From NCBI GenBank assembly GCA_964392425.1, contig CAYMQF010000001.1, positions 51,446 through 63,476 on the forward strand: 12,031 bases of DNA, in the 5' to 3' direction. Position 1 is the stretch's first letter. Every line of letters starts with the position of its first letter. A program made the translations under genes and the position numbers. The DNA is from an uncultured Phycisphaeraceae bacterium (GTDB lineage Bacteria; Planctomycetota; Phycisphaerae; Phycisphaerales; UBA1924). Shown here one piece after another: positions 3,710-12,031 of the stretch. Below the pieces are notes generated by a model. The model ran no database searches. It worked only from the letters and a program-made list of their open reading frames with translations, and was not told the origin of the DNA.

Positions 3710-4264
3710 TCACGCAGCCTTGCAGGTGTTCTGTGCGGTCGGGTTGGCGAAGGGGCCAAAGCCGAAGGGGAAGCCGGGGACGAACCCGAAAGGCATCTGC
3801 GGCATGTTCGAAGGCATGCCGTTGTTCTCATTCATGTTTTCGTTTTGACCGTTGGCGAAGGGCATTCCCCAGCCAGCCATCGCCCACGGGTTGAAGTTCA
3901 TCGCGTTCATCGGATTGCTCCACGGGTTGAATCCGAAGGAGTTGAACGGGTTGGCGCCGAACGAGTTCATCGGGTTGAAGCCGTTGAAGTTCTGGAAGTT
4001 CGAGTTGAATGGCGTATTGAACCCATTGAAGTTGTTCTGGTTGTTGAAGCCATTGAGGCCGTTGAAACTGTTCAAGTTGCTGAAGCCATTGAAGTTCGGT
4101 GTGTTCGAGTTGAACGGCGTATTGAAGCCGTTGAAACCATTGAAGTTGTTGAAGCCGCCGAAGTTCGGGTTGGACCCAAAGCCGCCGAAGCCGAAGTTGT
4201 TGAACGGCGTGTTGAACGGGGCGCTGAAGGGCGTCATAAAGGGATTCATCTGTTCGATCTCCAT
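3710..4264 (-). CDS. Asn/Phe/Gly/Pro-rich low-complexity repeat protein (FN/FG-type repeats such as NFNGFNTPFNSN); no signal peptide; function unknown
   Basis: The minus-strand frame has strong C/G third-position bias (TTC/AAC/GGC codons) throughout the repeat. The two mirror + strand frames and the other minus frame do not. Likely start is ATG at 4262-4264 (MEIEQMNPF) or ATG at 4247-4249 (MNPFMTPF), the latter preceded by GGAG with a 9-nt spacer. The longer ORF extension to 4384 has poor GC3 and is probably 5'UTR. Stop TGA at 3710-3712. Confidence 0.6.
   Translation of the reverse strand: MEIEQMNPFMTPFSAPFNTPFNNFGFGGFGSNPNFGGFNNFNGFNGFNTPFNSNTPNFNGFSNLNSFNGLNGFNNQNNFNGFNTPFNSNFQNFNGFNPMNSFGANPFNSFGFNPWSNPMNAMNFNPWAMAGWGMPFANGQNENMNENNGMPSNMPQMPFGFVPGFPFGFGPFANPTAQNTCKAA
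3890..4235. repeat. Degenerate short-period (6-9 nt) tandem repetitive DNA (GTTGAAGCC / GTTGAAGTT units) with an internal roughly 100-bp-spaced duplication
   Basis: Repeated ttgaagccgttgaag / ttgaacggcgtattgaa units. Near-identical blocks at about 4003-4036 and 4100-4150 (cgagttgaa(t/c)ggcgtattgaa(c/g)cc...attgaagttgtt). The region is open in three long overlapping frames because of the repetition. Confidence 0.65.
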
Positions 4265-4536
4265 TTCTATTGCCAGTTGAGTGTGGCGCCGTGTGACTGC
4301 GTGCACACATGGTGAATGGCCGTCGCCTACGGACGGGGCCGGTTGATCCTGAAGAGCCATATCTGGACGGTCATCAGGGGTCATCCAGAGCCTTGCGACT
4401 TGCGGGCAGGCTCACTCACCACCACGGGGGTCTGCATCGGCGTGAACGGTCGGCGACTTGGCAGTGGATCACGATTTTCTGTCGGTTTCCTCAAACGCCG
4501 CGATCAACCGACCGCCTCCCGGTACGCTGCTGATCT

Positions 4537-6368: not shown

Positions 6369-7196
6369 ATGTTCCAAAACGGTTGGGTATTCTGGATCAT
6401 CATCGGCGCCACCGTGGTGCAGTGGATCTTCGGCAAGCTCCGTGAGCAGGCTGAGCTGACCCGCGCCAAACAGGGTCGCGAAAAACGACGCGTCGACAAC
6501 CTTCGGACGGGGCAAGGGGGTAGCGCCGGCGCATCCACCGTGAGCAGGTCCGCCCCAACCATCACCCAGCATGATCTTCAGGCTCGTCGCGAGGCGCAGC
6601 TCAAGGCGCTCCGCGATCGTCAGCGAGCTCTCGGCCAGTCGCAGACAGCCTCGACTCCAGCACCGCCGCGCACGACGCCCCGACCGGCCCCCAGCGCCTC
6701 AGCGCAGGCTTCCAGTTTTCCCACCACATCTTCTCGGCCTGTTCCTCAACAGCGATCGCTTCCCACGCCTCAGACCTCCCGGCAAGCCGCCGTCGCAGCC
6801 CAACGGGCGGCCCGCGCCAAGCAGATCCGCCTCAATCGTCAACGCCATCTTCAACAGCAACAGCAAAAACAGCAGGCCAAAGCGCAAGCCCAAGCTGCGC
6901 AGAGTTCGTCAGCGGGCGATTTACGGATCAGTAAACCGAAAAAATCGCGCATCTCCGCTCCCAAACAATCCCGCATCGCCGCTCCCAAACTGTCCCGCAT
7001 CGCCGCGCCCAAACAATCCCGCATCAGCCAGCGAGCCTTACTGGAGCAGCGTGAGATTCGGCCGACGACCACCTCGAACTTGCATGGAGAACGGGACGGC
7101 GGATCGTTGGCGCCGAGGACGCTCGACGATTGGCGCCGGGCGATCATCGCATCGGAGATTCTCGCTCCTCCCGTGTCGATGCGCGAGATGGAGTGA
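6369..7196 (+). CDS. Membrane-anchored low-complexity protein. It has an N-terminal TM helix and a Pro/Gln/Ser/Thr/Ala-rich linker, then basic SRIAAPKQ tandem repeats and a short C-terminal domain; function unknown
   Basis: 275 aa. Single N-terminal hydrophobic helix (WVFWIIIGATVVQWIFGKL) followed by a positively charged stretch, so the bulk is probably cytoplasmic. Long disordered region. Tandem peptide repeat SKPKKSRISAPKQSRIAAPKLSRIAAPKQSRIS. GC3 bias is good, in contrast to the overlapping Arg/Pro-rich alternative frame 6571..7410. Only 9 nt downstream of the ABC ATPase stop and 12 nt upstream of the peptidase start. Confidence 0.6.
   Translation: MFQNGWVFWIIIGATVVQWIFGKLREQAELTRAKQGREKRRVDNLRTGQGGSAGASTVSRSAPTITQHDLQARREAQLKALRDRQRALGQSQTASTPAPPRTTPRPAPSASAQASSFPTTSSRPVPQQRSLPTPQTSRQAAVAAQRAARAKQIRLNRQRHLQQQQQKQQAKAQAQAAQSSSAGDLRISKPKKSRISAPKQSRIAAPKLSRIAAPKQSRISQRALLEQREIRPTTTSNLHGERDGGSLAPRTLDDWRRAIIASEILAPPVSMREME
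6944..7024 (+). repeat. 24-bp tandem repeat, 3 full copies plus a partial one (tc[c/g]cgcatc[t/g]ccgc[t/g]cccaaac[a/t][a/g]), in-frame and encoding SRI(S/A)APK(Q/L)
   Basis: Copies at 6944-6967, 6968-6991 and 6992-7015, plus a partial copy from 7016. They differ at only 1-3 positions. Confidence 0.7.
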
Positions 7197-7208: not shown

Positions 7209-8327
7209 GTGCCCGCGTTCGATATACTCCCCGGCCCGATGCCCACCAAGAATGCCCCGCCATTTCGCGCCCGGATCAAAAAGCTGCGTGCTGCGCTGGG
7301 CTCCCACGAGGTCGACGCCATCCTCGTCATCAATCCCCCCGACATCCGCTACCTCACCGGCTTCCACGGTGAAGACAGTTGGCTCGTCGTGTCAGGCCGA
7401 TCGACGGTGATCCTCAGCGATTTTCGTTTTCAGGAAGAACTGGCTGACGTTGAAGGCGCCCGCGTCGTCATCCGCACCGGCCCGATCGACCGTGCCGCCG
7501 TCGATCTTCTGGACCGCTTCAACCATGTCGCGGTGCAGGCGGAGCACATGACGATCTCCCTGCGCCAGCGATTGGCTCGGCTCGTCGGCTCACGTCGCCT
7601 GCGCAACACCACGGGCGTGCTCACCAAGCTGCGCATTATCAAAGACGCCAGCGAAGTCGCCATCATCCGCAAAGCCGTGCGCATTCAGGAAAAGGCATTG
7701 CTCGCGACGCTCGAAACCGTCGCGCCGGGGCAGAGCGAGCAGGACATCTGTGCTGAGCTTGAATGTCATATGAAAAAGTTTGGCGCAGCAAGCGTGAGCT
7801 TTGAGTCCATCGTCGCTGCCCAGACCAATGGGTCGCTGCCTCACTACACGCCGGGCCGGATGCGGACGAAGGCCAACCAACCGCTGCTCATCGACTGGGG
7901 CGCCCGCGTCGGCGGATATTGCTCGGACATGACCCGCACCATCGCGTTTGGCCGATGGCCCAAGAAGCTCGCCGAGGTGTACGAGATCGTTCTCGAAGCT
8001 CAGCAGGCGGCGATCGACGCGATCGAACCGGGCAAAAGTTGCGCAGTCATCGACGCCGTCGCCCGCGAGATCATCACCAAAGCTGGGTATGGCGATGCGT
8101 TCGGCCATGGGCTGGGCCACGGGATCGGGCTGGACATCCACGAAGCGCCGGGAGTGAACAAACAATCGGAGATCGTGCTCGCCCCTGGCATGGTCATCAC
8201 CGTCGAACCAGGCATCTATCTGCCCGGCATAGGAGGCGTGCGGATCGAGGATGACGTGCTCGTCACCGAGCGAGGTCGGCGAAATCTTTGTTCACTTCCA
8301 AAATCGTTAGAATGGTCGACGCGATGA
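7209..8327 (+). CDS. pepP: Xaa-Pro aminopeptidase / prolidase, peptidase family M24B
   Basis: Creatinase_N-like N-terminal half. C-terminal pita-bread domain with metal-ligand motifs (...DWGARVGGYCSDMTRT..., HGLGHGIGLDIHE, ...VEPGIY...GVRIEDDVLVTE). GTG start at 7209; an in-frame ATG at 7239 (MPTKNAPPFRARIKKLR) is an alternative start. Stop TGA overlaps the accB ATG (ATGA at 8324-8327). Confidence 0.85.
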   Translation: MPAFDILPGPMPTKNAPPFRARIKKLRAALGSHEVDAILVINPPDIRYLTGFHGEDSWLVVSGRSTVILSDFRFQEELADVEGARVVIRTGPIDRAAVDLLDRFNHVAVQAEHMTISLRQRLARLVGSRRLRNTTGVLTKLRIIKDASEVAIIRKAVRIQEKALLATLETVAPGQSEQDICAELECHMKKFGAASVSFESIVAAQTNGSLPHYTPGRMRTKANQPLLIDWGARVGGYCSDMTRTIAFGRWPKKLAEVYEIVLEAQQAAIDAIEPGKSCAVIDAVAREIITKAGYGDAFGHGLGHGIGLDIHEAPGVNKQSEIVLAPGMVITVEPGIYLPGIGGVRIEDDVLVTERGRRNLCSLPKSLEWSTR

Positions 8328-8782
8328 TTGATCAAAAACGACTAGCGCAGCTCATCCAACTCATGGTCGACAACGACCTGTCTGAGCTGAATATTCAGGA
8401 CAAAGACCAGACCGTGGCGCTCAAGCGGCAGCTCAATGCTCCGCCCGCTGTTGCGACTGCGGCGCCCATGCTGCAAGCGCAACCGCCGCCAGTTCCCGCA
8501 GCGACGGTCCCGGCGATTGTCGAGGCGGATGCGGACGCTGGGCTCGTTGCCATCGAATCCCCCATGGTCGGCACGTTCTACACCAAGCCCAACCCCGATA
8601 CGGACGTGTTCGTCAAAGTCGGCTCACCCATCGGGCCCGACACCGTCGTGTGCCTGATCGAGGCGATGAAAGTCTTCAACGAAGTGCAGGCGGAAATGAG
8701 CGGCGTCGTCGAACGCGTCCTCGTTGACAACGGTGAGCCTGTCGAGTTTGGCCAAAAGCTGTACTTGGTTCGGCCCAACTGA
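8324..8782 (+). CDS. accB: Biotin carboxyl carrier protein of acetyl-CoA carboxylase
   Basis: Pro/Ala-rich linker followed by a biotinyl domain carrying the EAMK biotinylation motif (VVCLIEAMKVFNEVQAE). Typical N-terminus MIDQKRLAQLIQLMVDNDLSELNIQD. ATG 8324 overlaps the pepP stop; the ORF-track TTG at 8288 is an unlikely extension. Confidence 0.9.
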   Translation: MIDQKRLAQLIQLMVDNDLSELNIQDKDQTVALKRQLNAPPAVATAAPMLQAQPPPVPAATVPAIVEADADAGLVAIESPMVGTFYTKPNPDTDVFVKVGSPIGPDTVVCLIEAMKVFNEVQAEMSGVVERVLVDNGEPVEFGQKLYLVRPN

Positions 8783-8806: not shown

Positions 8807-10150
8807 ATGTTCAACCGAATCCTTATCGCAAACCGAGGCGAGATCGCTCTCCGGATCATTCGTGCCTGCAAAGAGCTGGGCGTCGAGTCGGTCTGTGTGT
8901 ACTCGCAAGCGGACGCCGGGGCGCCGTACCTCGATCTTGCCGACCGTTCGATCTGCATCGGGCCGGGACCCGCGGCGCAGAGCTATCTCGACATCTCGCG
9001 GATCATCTCAGCAGCGGAGCAAGCGAGCGCCGACGCGATCCATCCCGGCTACGGCTTCCTCGCGGAAAACGCTCACTTCGCAAGCGTCTGCGCGGACTGC
9101 GGCGTTGAGTTCATCGGCCCATCGCCCGACGCCATGCAACAGCTTGGAGACAAGATTCGCGCCAAAGCGCTCGCGCGCGAAGCGAAAGTCCCCGTCTTCC
9201 CCGGCTCAGACGGCGCCATCAACAGCCCCGAAGAGGCCATCGAAGAAGCTCAAAAAATAGGCTATCCCGTCATCGTCAAGGCAACGTTCGGCGGTGGGGG
9301 GCGCGGCATGCGCATCGCCCGCAACAAAGATGAACTCATCACGGGAGTCGAACGAGCGTCGCGCGAAGCGGAGGCTGCCTTTGGCAATGGGTCCGTCTAT
9401 CTCGAAAAGTTCCTCGAATCGGCAAGGCATGTCGAAGTACAGGTCATCGGCGATAAGTTTGGGTCAGCCGTCCATCTCTTTGAGCGCGATTGCTCGATCC
9501 AGCGACGCCATCAGAAGCTCATCGAAGAGTCCCCGGCGCCTGGCATCGACCAACGCCGCAAGGACGAAGTGTGCAAGCGCGCCGCCGGGTTGTTGCGCAA
9601 AGCGAAGTACGCTGGCGCTGCGACGGTGGAGTTCCTCGTCGATGAAAAGCAAAATTTTTACATGCTCGAAGTGAACACACGCCTGCAGGTCGAGCATCCT
9701 GTCACAGAGATGGTCACCGGGATTGATATCGTCAAGACGATGATTCGTATTGCAGCGGGCGAGCCGTTGCCCTTCAAGCAGCGCGACATCAAACGGCGTG
9801 GACACGCGATGGAATGCCGAATCAACGCGGAGGATCCCGATCGCAACTTCGCGCCGTGCCCCGGCAACATCGTCCGTTTCGATCCGCCGGGCGGACCGGG
9901 CGTGCGCATGGACACGCACTGCGTTGCGGGCAGCCGAGTCCCGCCTGATTATGACTCGATGATCGGCAAGCTGATCGTTCACGATGATGATCGCGCTTCG
10001 TGCATTGCGCGGATGGACCGGGCGCTGAACGAACTCAAGATCGAGCCGATTCGCACGACGACGCCGTTGCAGATCAAGCTCATGCGCAACGCATCGTTCC
10101 AAAAGGGCGGCGTGGACATCCACTTCCTCGAACGCCTGCTCAAAAGCTGA
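8807..10150 (+). CDS. accC: Biotin carboxylase subunit of acetyl-CoA carboxylase
   Basis: 447 aa. MFNRILIANRGEIALRIIRACKELG N-terminus. ATP-grasp motifs. Canonical AccC C-terminal domain ...EHPVTEMVTGIDIVK...KLIVH... Lies 24 nt after accB. Confidence 0.95.
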   Translation: MFNRILIANRGEIALRIIRACKELGVESVCVYSQADAGAPYLDLADRSICIGPGPAAQSYLDISRIISAAEQASADAIHPGYGFLAENAHFASVCADCGVEFIGPSPDAMQQLGDKIRAKALAREAKVPVFPGSDGAINSPEEAIEEAQKIGYPVIVKATFGGGGRGMRIARNKDELITGVERASREAEAAFGNGSVYLEKFLESARHVEVQVIGDKFGSAVHLFERDCSIQRRHQKLIEESPAPGIDQRRKDEVCKRAAGLLRKAKYAGAATVEFLVDEKQNFYMLEVNTRLQVEHPVTEMVTGIDIVKTMIRIAAGEPLPFKQRDIKRRGHAMECRINAEDPDRNFAPCPGNIVRFDPPGGPGVRMDTHCVAGSRVPPDYDSMIGKLIVHDDDRASCIARMDRALNELKIEPIRTTTPLQIKLMRNASFQKGGVDIHFLERLLKS

Positions 10151-10302
10151 CTCGCAAAAACTCTGCTGAGACACGTTGGAGCTGGGCGATTGGGGCAGTG
10201 ATCGCGTCCTTCCTCAATATTTTTTTGATCGGCGCGAAAACCGACGGTCGGTGACGTTGTAGACAGAGTAGGCGGGCGCCGTCCGCTGTAGGCTCATCTA
10301 TT

Positions 10303-10309
10303 TCAGGAG
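10303..10309 (+). promoter_or_regulatory. Shine-Dalgarno AGGAGAT, 7-8 nt upstream of the ATG of the secreted STN-like protein
   Basis: caggagatacaaccATG. Confidence 0.5.
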
Positions 10310-10317
10310 ATACAACC

Positions 10318-11313
10318 ATGTCAAAGCATGTTGCGCTCAAGGCGCTGGTCGTAATGTTCGGTGTCGTCGCTATGTCACTGATCGCTACGCCTTCCGCCAT
10401 CGCGCAGGAGAACCCCGCGGGCGCCGCTCTGAATCAGGATTTGTACTTTGATCTCGACTTCCCCGGCGGAACGCTCGAACAGTACCTCGATGCGATCCGT
10501 AAAGCGCACCCCGGCTCCAACGTCAAGCTCTCCGATGAATCGAAAACAGCGCGCATCCCAGCGATGAAACTTAACGGTGTGACACTCGGCGCCGCTGTCA
10601 AGCTGGTAAATGGAGACACTCTCAACACCGCCGGTGACACAGTTATCATTTGGAACACTCCCGTGAAAATCGCTGGGCGGATCGAGAGGGCATATCGCCT
10701 CGGTGTGACCATAATGATCGAGGCATCCGCCAAAGGGAAGGGAGAAAAATCATCAGATCAACAAATCAAAGGGGGTCGGTCCAACGTCTGGAGTCTGCGC
10801 GATCTGGTTGATGCGGGCATGAAGATGGACGACGTGCTAGGAGCTGTGCGCGTGGCGCTCAAGACGATCGACAAGCCGTCCCAGATTCGCCTTCATGAGC
10901 CGACCTCGCTGTTGATCGTGCGAGGCACGAAGGAACAACTGGAGCTTGTCGACCAGACCGTGTCAGCGATGGCCGAGGATGTCAGAAAACGATCCGGGAA
11001 AGGGGAGTGGACGGCAGAGCAGATCGACGATCTTCAAGGCGAACTCGTCAAGGCGCAGGTGGAGAGGCGTATCGCGGAGAAGAGACTCGAAATATCGTCG
11101 GAATCGTTGAAACGTTCACGACAGAACTTGGAAAAACGCCGGCCGGACCTGACAGATGATCAGATTGTGGGTGCCGAACAGGCGGTCACTAACTGGGAGC
11201 TTGACATAGTACATATCATTGGGAAGTTGCAGATCGCTCAGGACAAGGTCGAACGGCTCACCAAACGCCTCAAACGTTTGCAAGGCGCCGACTCTGAGTC
11301 TGCTTCGCAATAA
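10318..11313 (+). CDS. Secreted/periplasmic protein. It carries an STN-like (secretin/TonB N-terminal signalling) domain, a secretin-N-like domain and a C-terminal coiled coil, and has no secretin or TonB-receptor barrel
   Basis: Signal peptide MSKHVALKALVVMFGVVAMSLIATPSAIA|QE. Residues ~45-115 (FDLDFPGGTLEQYLDAIRKAHPGSNVKLSDESKTARIPAMKLNGVTLGAAVKLVNGDTLNTAGDTVII) fit the STN pattern. ...IRLHEPTSLLIVRGTKEQLELVDQTVSAM fits the secretin_N 'RTNSLIVRG..EQL..V..LI' motif. The last ~110 aa are heptad-rich (ELVKAQVERRIAEKRLE...LQIAQDKVERLTKRLKRLQ). Domain calls are by eye and not verified. Confidence 0.8.
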   Translation: MSKHVALKALVVMFGVVAMSLIATPSAIAQENPAGAALNQDLYFDLDFPGGTLEQYLDAIRKAHPGSNVKLSDESKTARIPAMKLNGVTLGAAVKLVNGDTLNTAGDTVIIWNTPVKIAGRIERAYRLGVTIMIEASAKGKGEKSSDQQIKGGRSNVWSLRDLVDAGMKMDDVLGAVRVALKTIDKPSQIRLHEPTSLLIVRGTKEQLELVDQTVSAMAEDVRKRSGKGEWTAEQIDDLQGELVKAQVERRIAEKRLEISSESLKRSRQNLEKRRPDLTDDQIVGAEQAVTNWELDIVHIIGKLQIAQDKVERLTKRLKRLQGADSESASQ

Positions 11314-11367
11314 TACGATTGAAGGCTGTTGTGTCATGATGTCCGCCGTTTCCCCCGAGAATGATCC

Positions 11368-11928
11368 TTGCAAAGTGTCTTCGAGATCACGTCTGCGATC
11401 GCGTCGGGCTCGTCCGATGCTGACGCGCTCGTCGATGCGTTCAGCAGGCTGTACGACTCGAAGTTTGATTTCGTTCATCGGCTCATCGTGCGAAAGACCG
11501 GCGTCGATGAATCTGCTGCGATGGACATTGTGCAGGAGACGATGATGCGCGTGATCCGCCACATCAAGCCGATGCGGACCGAGGCCGACCTTGACGCCTG
11601 GCTGACGCGGGTCGCGCTCAATGCTTCGTACGATCGACTTCGCGCGGACCGACGCCGACGAGCCCGCGAGATGGAGAGTGTGAATCACCGAAACTCGATC
11701 GAGTCAGTGCAGAATTTGGTCGGCATGTCCGCCAATGTCGAGGCGTTGCGCGAGGAGATCGCTGCACTGGATGTAGGCTCGTTTGACCTTCTTTCCATGC
11801 GGTTTCGCGCGGGCATGACGCTCGAAGCGATCGGGCGCAGGCTCGGCGTTGGCGCTGGGGCGGCGGACGGGCGGCTCCGCCGAGTGCTGGCGCAGTTGCA
11901 ACAACGCCTTGAGGAGCAGGAGCTATGA
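11368..11928 (+). CDS. ECF-type (group 4) sigma-70 family RNA polymerase sigma factor
   Basis: Region 2 (FDFVHRLIVRKTGVDESAAMDIVQETMMRVIRHIKPMRTEADLDAWLTRVALNASYDRLRADRRRRAR) and region 4 (LSMRFRAGMTLEAIGRRLGVGAGAADGRLRRVLAQLQQRL). TTG start at 11368 with no clear SD, so the exact start is uncertain. 54 nt after the upstream gene. Confidence 0.85.
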   Translation: MQSVFEITSAIASGSSDADALVDAFSRLYDSKFDFVHRLIVRKTGVDESAAMDIVQETMMRVIRHIKPMRTEADLDAWLTRVALNASYDRLRADRRRRAREMESVNHRNSIESVQNLVGMSANVEALREEIAALDVGSFDLLSMRFRAGMTLEAIGRRLGVGAGAADGRLRRVLAQLQQRLEEQEL

Positions 11929-12031
11929 CGGGCGACACGCGCGACAACAAGCTCTCTCCCGATGGTCAACTTCGGCGTGACGTGATGCGCACGGAGCTGT
12001 GCCAACGGGCGCTCGAGCATCACGCGCATCG
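11925..12031 (+). CDS. 5' end of a translationally coupled downstream ORF that runs off the window; by position probably the cognate anti-sigma factor
   Basis: ATG at 11925 overlaps the sigma stop (ATGA at 11925-11928). GGAG motifs sit 3-10 nt upstream. Frame is open to the window end (MTGDTRDNKLSPDGQLRRDVMRTELCQRALEHHAH...). Only 35 codons are visible. Confidence 0.45.
   Translation, partial: MTGDTRDNKLSPDGQLRRDVMRTELCQRALEHHAH

Follow-up and report, generated by a model that had tools for sequence, protein, structure and literature searches.

Extracytoplasmic function (ECF) sigma factors paired with anti-sigma factors are a major form of bacterial signal transduction, and for many groups the way in which the signal enters is not understood. 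In one described arrangement, RpoE-RseA-RseB, the soluble periplasmic protein RseB shares its operon with an ECF sigma factor and a single-pass anti-sigma factor, binds the periplasmic domain of RseA and shields it from proteolysis, and the operon is autoregulated. In systems of the FecA-FecR-FecI, PupB-PupR-PupI and FoxA-FoxR-FoxI type (cell-surface signalling), the signalling domain of the TonB-dependent transducer binds and stabilizes the periplasmic part of the regulator (PMC7186176, PMC11637429). The periplasmic domain of PupR ends in an STN subdomain, and PupR is bound and stabilized by the STN-fold signalling domain of PupB (PMC7186176). The signalling domain of FoxA binds FoxR without inducer and shields it from proteolysis, signalling is inhibited when the free domain is overproduced, and processing appears to yield a FoxA form that lacks it (PMC11637429). 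Here we describe a cassette of three genes that starts at position 10318 of a 12,031-nucleotide stretch of DNA (the window; assembly GCA_964392425.1, contig CAYMQF010000001.1, positions 51,446 to 63,476) from an uncultured Phycisphaeraceae bacterium. It encodes a secreted protein (gene 1), an ECF sigma factor (gene 2) and a small membrane protein (gene 3), and probably represents an ECF sigma/anti-sigma module in which the periplasmic partner, of secretin-N type, is undescribed and the minimal membrane regulator unrecognized. An earlier, sequence-only reading of the window had described this site, largely correctly, and had proposed a barrel-less variant of cell-surface signalling, an interpretation that is supported in part.

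Like the Fec, Pup and Fox systems, the cassette pairs an ECF sigma factor with a putative single-pass membrane regulator and encodes a periplasmic domain with a putative N0/STN-like fold in the same unit. Unlike them, it contains no TonB-dependent barrel or plug, and the domain is carried by a free secreted protein in which a Secretin_N-like domain and a helical hairpin follow. The differences extend to all three genes: the STN hidden Markov model (HMM) does not match gene 1, the similarity of gene 2 to FecI is weak and local, gene 3 has neither a FecR domain nor a class I anti-sigma domain, and the genes are ordered protein, sigma factor, regulator. The combination of a soluble periplasmic protein, an ECF sigma factor and a single-pass membrane protein is also that of RpoE-RseA-RseB, and RseB-RseA would be the functional analogue. 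Gene 1 differs from RseB in lacking any similarity to it in Pfam or NCBIfam and in having the predicted fold of secretin N-domains; the gene order differs as well, and gene 3 matches no curated anti-sigma family, that of RseA included.

Two further groups of proteins invite comparison with gene 1. Unlike the secretins GspD, EscC, InvG and PilQ, its product has no C-terminal secretin barrel, is 331 amino acids (aa) long and ends in a helical hairpin, and it is encoded with a sigma factor rather than with a secretion or pilus system. With the membrane-fusion or periplasmic adaptor proteins HlyD and LipC it shares a periplasmic location and a long antiparallel helical hairpin, and both were found in structure searches. 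These matches were limited to the helices, however, gene 1 has no significant match to a membrane-fusion family, and many members of its family lack the hairpin. Within the window, HlyD_D23 was matched by a neighbouring biotin carboxyl carrier protein only (E 0.11).

Conservation of the gene order

Relatives of gene 1 were collected in a metagenome scan that returned 263 of them, from which 80 loci were kept, and HMMs built from the trio genes were used for counting. The sigma factor gene directly follows gene 1 in 48 of the 50 loci with enough downstream DNA (the exceptions being L052 and L054), and a homologue of gene 3 directly follows the sigma factor gene in 44 of 45. The sole locus without a match to the gene-3 HMM, L006, carries a divergent gene 3 on inspection. 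Some of the counted loci are near-duplicates, so these counts do not all stand for independent events. The genes on either side differ between loci and lineages, so the cassette moves as one block.

A metagenome-assembled genome (MAG) of the Phycisphaerales (L001/L002, 35% identity) and L086 (54% identity) show the three genes in this order and on one strand. Two loci are incomplete: L087 has gene 1 and a cut sigma factor gene in the same order and strand, and L089 has the sigma factor gene and gene 3, with gene 1 cut down to its last ~35 nt by the contig edge. Three MAG loci (L003-L005) also carry the trio, L004 and L005 being labelled Verrucomicrobiota and L003 Bifidobacteriaceae. Overall, organism-labelled trio loci come mainly from Phycisphaerales and Verrucomicrobiota, and further loci from soil and peat metagenomes. 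The order of periplasmic protein, ECF sigma factor and small membrane protein, whose presence in related genomes had been named as a check of the sequence-only reading, is strongly conserved, recurring in Planctomycetota and Verrucomicrobiota beyond what chance would produce.

In the case of L003 (CAYPSF010000028.1), assigned to an uncultured Bifidobacteriaceae MAG, the trio is of the Verrucomicrobiota type, with HMM scores and gene spacing identical to those of L009, a locus from a peat metagenome. Mis-binning of this contig is probable. As a separate observation on the flanks (L001 12062-13312, L089 1152-2525, L006 5535-6785), a convergent class I/II aminotransferase gene lies 3' of gene 3 in Phycisphaerae-type loci, and several Verrucomicrobiota-type loci have an aminotransferase-like gene directly upstream of the trio.

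Promoter-like motif and probable operon structure

The three genes lie close together on the + strand of the window. Gene 2 (11368-11928) starts 54 nt after the stop codon of gene 1 (10318-11313), and its own TGA shares the sequence ATGA with the ATG of gene 3, which begins at 11925, both as the sequence-only reading had stated. The start codon of gene 2 is a TTG directly after an in-frame TGA. An overlap between the end of the sigma factor gene and the start of gene 3 is also present in most relatives, where it measures 4-14 nt. No terminator-like site was found between 9900 and 12031, and hence none inside the cassette.

Verrucomicrobiota-type loci share the motif GAAGGATTT-N~15-(G/C)CGTGT on the 5' side of gene 1. 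A relaxed pattern, AGGAT-N14-19-CGT[GAC]T, was sought within 260 nt upstream of gene 1 in non-redundant loci and was found in 53 of 62, versus a single match in the remaining 578 kb on both strands. Phycisphaerae-type loci (the window, L001 and L087) have GCGCGAAA-N15-CGTT in the same relative position. In the window this motif, GCGAAA-N15-CGTT at 10234-10258 (+), lies ~60 nt 5' of gene 1 and is the only match, 0.05 being expected by chance. ECF promoters typically combine an A-rich -35 element with a CGT-containing -10 element at such a spacing, and we infer from these sequence features that the motif works as a promoter. Together with the short spacers and overlaps, it argues for a single sigma-dependent, autoregulated operon, and the cassette is probably such an ECF sigma operon.

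A putative ribosome-binding site, AGGAGA, is located at 10305-10310 (+), 7 nt 5' of the ATG of gene 1. Between the promoter-like motif and this site, a GGCGGG(A/C)GCGTC box is conserved in 4/4 Phycisphaerae-type loci (window 10262-10300; L001, L086 and L087). A leader hairpin formed from this box was no more stable than shuffled sequence (z -0.22). Outside the trio context, the gene-1 homologue of L052 (3818-4606) has a variant ECF-type promoter motif upstream, but the genes downstream of it are HIT-family, NrdR-like and EF-P-like ones. This copy may belong to the regulon as an orphan.

Gene 1 encodes a predicted secreted protein with secretin-like N-domains

The product of gene 1 was described in the sequence-only reading as a 331-aa signal-peptide protein without a beta-barrel, and the open reading frame (ORF), its N-terminal features and an AlphaFold2 model bear this out. 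A Sec signal peptide (residues 1-29, 10318-10404) is predicted from a K/H-rich start, a hydrophobic core and the cleavage site AIA/Q at 29/30. An N-terminal hydrophobic segment is present in 141 of 154 relatives. The AlphaFold2 model, built with a 78-sequence alignment, has a mean predicted local distance difference test score (pLDDT) of 87.5 and places the signal-peptide helix at residues 5-19. Domain 1 (residues ~40-135, 10435-10722; about 44-133 in the model) carries the invariant F-x-L-D-F-P-G-G motif and has the order beta-alpha-beta-beta-alpha-beta-beta-beta, an order that fits N0/STN topology. A low-confidence linker at about residues 134-153 leads to domain 2 (residues ~153-204, 10774-10929; modelled from 154), a Secretin_N-like beta-alpha-beta-beta unit that in the model has the order beta-alpha-alpha-beta-beta and that carries the motif H-x-P-T-S-L-L-I-V-R-G. 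The C-terminal part (residues 205-330, 10930-11307) had been read as a coiled coil of roughly 110 aa; in the model it is instead a 126-aa antiparallel hairpin of two long helices (205-277 and 280-330).

In a Foldseek search of the PDB, the top six matches of gene 1 were periplasmic fragments of secretins, with probabilities of 0.97-1.0: PilQ (6w6m), a pilus-machine model (3jc8), EscC (3gr5), GspD (3oss and 3ezj) and InvG (2y9k). The alignments span ~180 columns, so that for EscC, GspD and InvG both N0 and N1 are covered. Pfam and the model also agree on the missing parts: no secretin barrel domain was matched in gene 1, the model consisting of two small alpha/beta domains and the hairpin only, and neither Plug nor TonB_dep_Rec was matched in the 331-aa product, which sets it apart from TonB-dependent transducers. 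Based on the predicted structure, we conclude that gene 1 encodes a free, secreted and barrel-less unit of an N0-like and an N1-like (Secretin_N) domain with a helical hairpin.

The two domain names proposed from sequence fared differently. 'Secretin-N-like' is supported by sequence at the family level, where 52 of 78 relatives scanned individually match Secretin_N at E<1 (best 9.2e-7), although gene 1 itself stays below the Pfam threshold (E 0.006, 17.1 bits versus a cut-off of 28.2, residues 185-217). NCBIfam gave two weak matches in all, both far below threshold, one of them (E 0.006) to the part of the Amuc_1098 pilus secretin that holds its N-domains. Apart from Secretin_N and scattered weak coiled-coil matches, no Pfam family was found for gene 1 or the 78 relatives. 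'STN-like', by contrast, is supported for domain 1 by the predicted fold alone (AlphaFold2, and the Foldseek matches to secretin N0-N1 domains), and every sequence test was negative. Pfam STN (PF07660) has no match in gene 1 and is absent from the 25 most frequently matched families of the 78 relatives. A profile of domain 1 alone found nothing among PDB sequences at E<=10, and the whole-family profile recovered no STN there. Comparison of domain 1 with the signalling domain of E. coli FecA by hhalign gave a probability of 0.1%, and the same test against the C-terminus of E. coli FecR was negative.

The gene-1 family is large. A profile search of 1.84 billion cluster representatives gave 2451 family proteins at E<=1e-3 and 1477 at E<=1e-10; a word-indexed search had found only five relatives. 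Family members consist of 1-3 copies of the module with the invariant F-x-L-D-F-P-G-G motif, followed by one H-x-x-T-x-L-L-I-x-R-G module and an optional coiled-coil tail, the helical hairpin being missing from many. Relatives P0008, P0011, P0013-P0017, P0019 and P0125 have 2 or 3 tandem N0-like modules before the single Secretin_N-like one. Among 154 relatives, no fusion of gene 1 to an anti-sigma or transmembrane module was found, and the long relatives inspected have duplicated N0-like modules or extra C-terminal sequence. The collections searched label both the gene-1 and the gene-3 families only as hypothetical proteins without a Pfam domain, and neither gene is covered by a curated family.

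Gene 2 encodes an ECF sigma factor

Gene 2 (186 aa) had been called an ECF sigma factor, and this identification holds. Pfam finds Sigma70_r2 at 1.1e-11 and Sigma70_r4 at 4.6e-5 (23.3 bits, just under the cut-off of 24.1), and NCBIfam finds TIGR02937 at 7.9e-19, above cut-off. Regions sigma-2 and sigma-4 are present and no other sigma region was reported by either collection. By its sequence, gene 2 is an ECF (group 4) sigma-70 factor, a class with sigma-2 and sigma-4, no region 3 or 1.1, and about 170-220 aa. None of the specific NCBIfam equivalogs was reached. Similarity to E. coli FecI in BLASTP was weak and local (21.6 bits over 42 residues), so that gene 2 is not FecI-like in sequence.

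An identical 186-aa product is on record, and two members of its 90% cluster, from the Joint Genome Institute (JGI), are named ECF sigma. An HMM of the trio sigma factors separates them (1e-36 to 1e-103) from other ECF sigma factors in the same loci (5e-5 to 5e-15). Gene 2 and the Verrucomicrobiota-type trio sigma factor of L003 are 34% identical over region 2, including an RV(I/V)RHIK motif. The sigma group to which gene 2 belongs may already be catalogued among the ECF groups.

Gene 3 encodes a small single-pass membrane protein

Only the first 35 codons of gene 3 (11925-12031, +) lie inside the window. A near-native full-length product of 163 aa was available from L089, a JGI metagenome contig found via the 90% cluster of gene 2 and 93% identical in DNA to window positions 11280-12031. 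It has a cytoplasmic part (residues 1-43) with HRKARRRAAQ at its end, then one hydrophobic segment, SIMGLFLVAITVWGAILATSAM, and lastly a periplasmic tail (~100 residues) that terminates in ISDEELLEMLAKMGRRTGIAHIDGKTILT. A single hydrophobic segment preceded by basic residues strongly indicates a single-pass inner-membrane protein. The L089 protein belongs with the other homologues of gene 3 (hhalign probability 92.7% against their profile), a family carried as 'hypothetical protein' in the source collections.

Comparisons of this family with known proteins were negative. No Pfam family was found for four homologues and no NCBIfam family was matched, the profile had no relatives above noise among PDB sequences, and against E. 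coli FecR hhalign gave a probability of 0.2%. With FecR-type sigma regulators gene 3 shares only the single transmembrane segment. The cytoplasmic domain of class I anti-sigma factors comprises four helices in about 80-90 aa and frequently a zinc-binding motif, whereas gene 3 has ~43 residues and one predicted helix. The third ORF had been presumed to be the anti-sigma factor; the transmembrane segment expected of it is there in L089, and a recognizable anti-sigma domain is not.

The AlphaFold2 model of a Phycisphaerales homologue (pLDDT 71, with low confidence in the periplasmic part) shows one long helix, residues 3-62, that comprises the cytoplasmic part and the transmembrane segment, then a disordered stretch (63-119) and a small unit of helix, beta-hairpin and helix at 120-162. 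A fold search with this model returned noise only. The best conserved parts of the protein are its N-terminal 45 residues and a C-terminal motif (D-[DE]-E-L-L). The periplasmic tail is predicted to be mostly disordered by itself and to end in a conserved helix plus beta-hairpin that carries this motif. Short membrane anti-sigma factors with about 45 cytoplasmic residues do exist (class II, CnrY type). Gene 3 is a putative anti-sigma factor based on its translational coupling to the sigma factor, its co-occurrence with it in 44 of 45 loci and its conserved cytoplasmic N-terminus.

Genes surrounding the cassette in the window

According to the ORF list and Pfam, the cassette is preceded on the + strand by co-oriented genes that include an M24 peptidase (7209-8327), a biotin carboxyl carrier protein (8288-8782) and a biotin carboxylase (8807-10150); 167 nt separate the last of these from gene 1. 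Further upstream, a 425-aa repeat protein (518-1795, +) has a signal-like N-terminus and two C-terminal GDLNGDGxVNSxDLAxLLSxWG units, and its match to the GC-type dockerin domain NF041540 is below threshold (23.7 bits versus a cut-off of 29). A similar, dockerin-ended protein adjoins the trio on the upstream side in L006. A 275-aa ORF (6369-7196, +) contains repeated SRI(A/S)APKQ units, has a high content of Q, P, S and R and has no NCBIfam match. A 224-aa ORF on the opposite strand (3710-4384, -) is rich in the residues N, F and G and has numerous short FNGFN/FNNF-like repeats as well as an N-terminus of ordinary appearance. GC content is lower here (0.566), several ORFs on the other strand overlap it, and it may or may not be a real low-complexity protein.

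Proposed mechanism and alternative explanations

The region can be read as the start of a conserved three-gene envelope-signalling module built around an ECF sigma factor, and this reading, taken together with the following mechanism, has in our estimate an even chance of being correct. Gene 3 would be a minimal anti-sigma factor whose N-terminal helix holds the sigma factor at the membrane. The gene 1 protein would use its N0/STN-like sheet to bind the tail of gene 3 in the periplasm and thereby set the stability of this tail against periplasmic proteases. An envelope signal that titrates or displaces the gene 1 protein would then release the sigma factor, and the released sigma factor would re-induce all three genes, giving negative feedback. 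Such protection would parallel that of FecR/FoxR/PupR-type regulators by the signalling domains of TonB-dependent transducers, and that of RseA by RseB. The role of gene 1 suggested in the sequence-only reading, that of a sensor or adaptor toward the anti-sigma factor, is plausible as a hypothesis. A wider version of this proposal is that the cassette is a widespread, barrel-less relative of cell-surface signalling in the PVC group (Planctomycetota, Verrucomicrobiota). In it, a free N0/N1 protein would replace the signalling domain of the TonB-dependent transducer, partner a new class of minimal single-pass anti-sigma factors, gate the proteolysis of these and so control an autoregulating ECF sigma factor. 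This version is put forward tentatively, its chances being somewhat below even.

Several observations weigh against the signalling module and its mechanism. The interactions between the products of genes 1 and 3 and between the sigma factor and gene 3 are proposals, and the promoter is called by inference from its motif. The Foldseek matches of gene 1 are marginal (E-values 5e-3 to 2e-2) with low TM-scores, which may be low because the two domains are differently oriented relative to each other, and domain 1 gives no sequence-level STN signal in Pfam, PDB profile or hhalign comparisons. No anti-sigma domain was detectable in gene 3 by Pfam, NCBIfam, PDB or FecR comparisons, its cytoplasmic part of ~43 residues is far shorter than a class I anti-sigma domain, and its one hint of such a function, NF052375 'antisigma', is a weak match (E 0.023) far below the cut-off of that model. 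Finally, the L052 homologue of gene 1 keeps the promoter motif, yet no sigma factor or gene 3 adjoins it, and the first position behind a sigma-dependent promoter fits an output protein equally well. The gene 1 protein might just as well be a co-regulator with a protective function or a mere product of sigma activity.

The main rival starts from this last point. It accepts the module as real and takes gene 1 to be an output of the sigma factor rather than its sensing part, with no control over gene 3. The protein would then be an envelope component induced upon sigma activation, its N0/N1-like domains and hairpin serving, for example, to bind peptidoglycan, a component of the outer membrane, or a secretin or pilus. 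To be first behind an ECF-type promoter motif is common for regulon products, and the orphan homologue in L052 has retained that motif with neither sigma factor nor gene 3 beside it. The number of N0-like copies (1-3) and the presence of the hairpin vary widely, a degree of variation more often seen in structural or adaptor proteins than in a regulator under tight co-evolution, and the hairpin resembles those of the membrane-fusion proteins HlyD and LipC. On the other hand, the adjacency to the sigma factor is near-obligate (48 of 50 loci) across two phyla and changing flanks, stronger than one would normally expect of a simple regulon member; the periplasmic domains of anti-sigma factors are known to pair with domains of the N0/STN type; and the periplasmic tail of gene 3 looks, in the model, like a segment that folds on binding and needs a partner. 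Weighing both sides, we regard an output role for gene 1 as less likely than not.

A different objection concerns gene 3. Perhaps it is no anti-sigma factor, the sigma factor being controlled otherwise (for example only transcriptionally, or by a distant regulator), and genes 1 and 3 make up a periplasmic/membrane pair with a separate function. The lack of any Pfam or NCBIfam anti-sigma family for gene 3 beyond the NF052375 hint, the lack of similarity to PDB proteins or FecR and the small number of cytoplasmic residues would all agree with this. Against it stand the conserved translational coupling to the sigma factor, the position of gene 3 behind that gene in nearly every locus, the fact that its cytoplasmic N-terminus is among its most conserved parts, and the existence of short class II membrane anti-sigma factors of the CnrY type. 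Such a pair with an independent function is improbable. An adjacency by chance, or an origin of gene 1 by decay of a gene for a secretin or TonB-dependent transducer, might be suspected from its barrel-less product and scores below Pfam thresholds, but both are rejected and effectively refuted by the conserved gene order and promoter motif, by a family of 2451 representatives (E<=1e-3) with signal peptides throughout, and by a confident fold prediction.

Novelty and significance

Keyword searches of the literature collection used found no description of a trio of periplasmic protein, sigma factor and membrane protein, and the main text of the ECF reclassification paper is silent on secretin, STN and Verrucomicrobia. 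The cassette ties an ECF sigma factor to two protein families without a curated description and occurs abundantly among the recovered loci from soil and peat metagenomes. If gene 1 does control gene 3, domains of the STN/N0 type would be portable modules that partner anti-sigma factors in general, with no need for a TonB-dependent receptor. This would fit the evidence that the signalling domain of a transducer protects its anti-sigma factor (PMC11637429). As the module is compact and its promoter motif clear, it would be a convenient system for testing this idea and for defining a new minimal class of anti-sigma factors.

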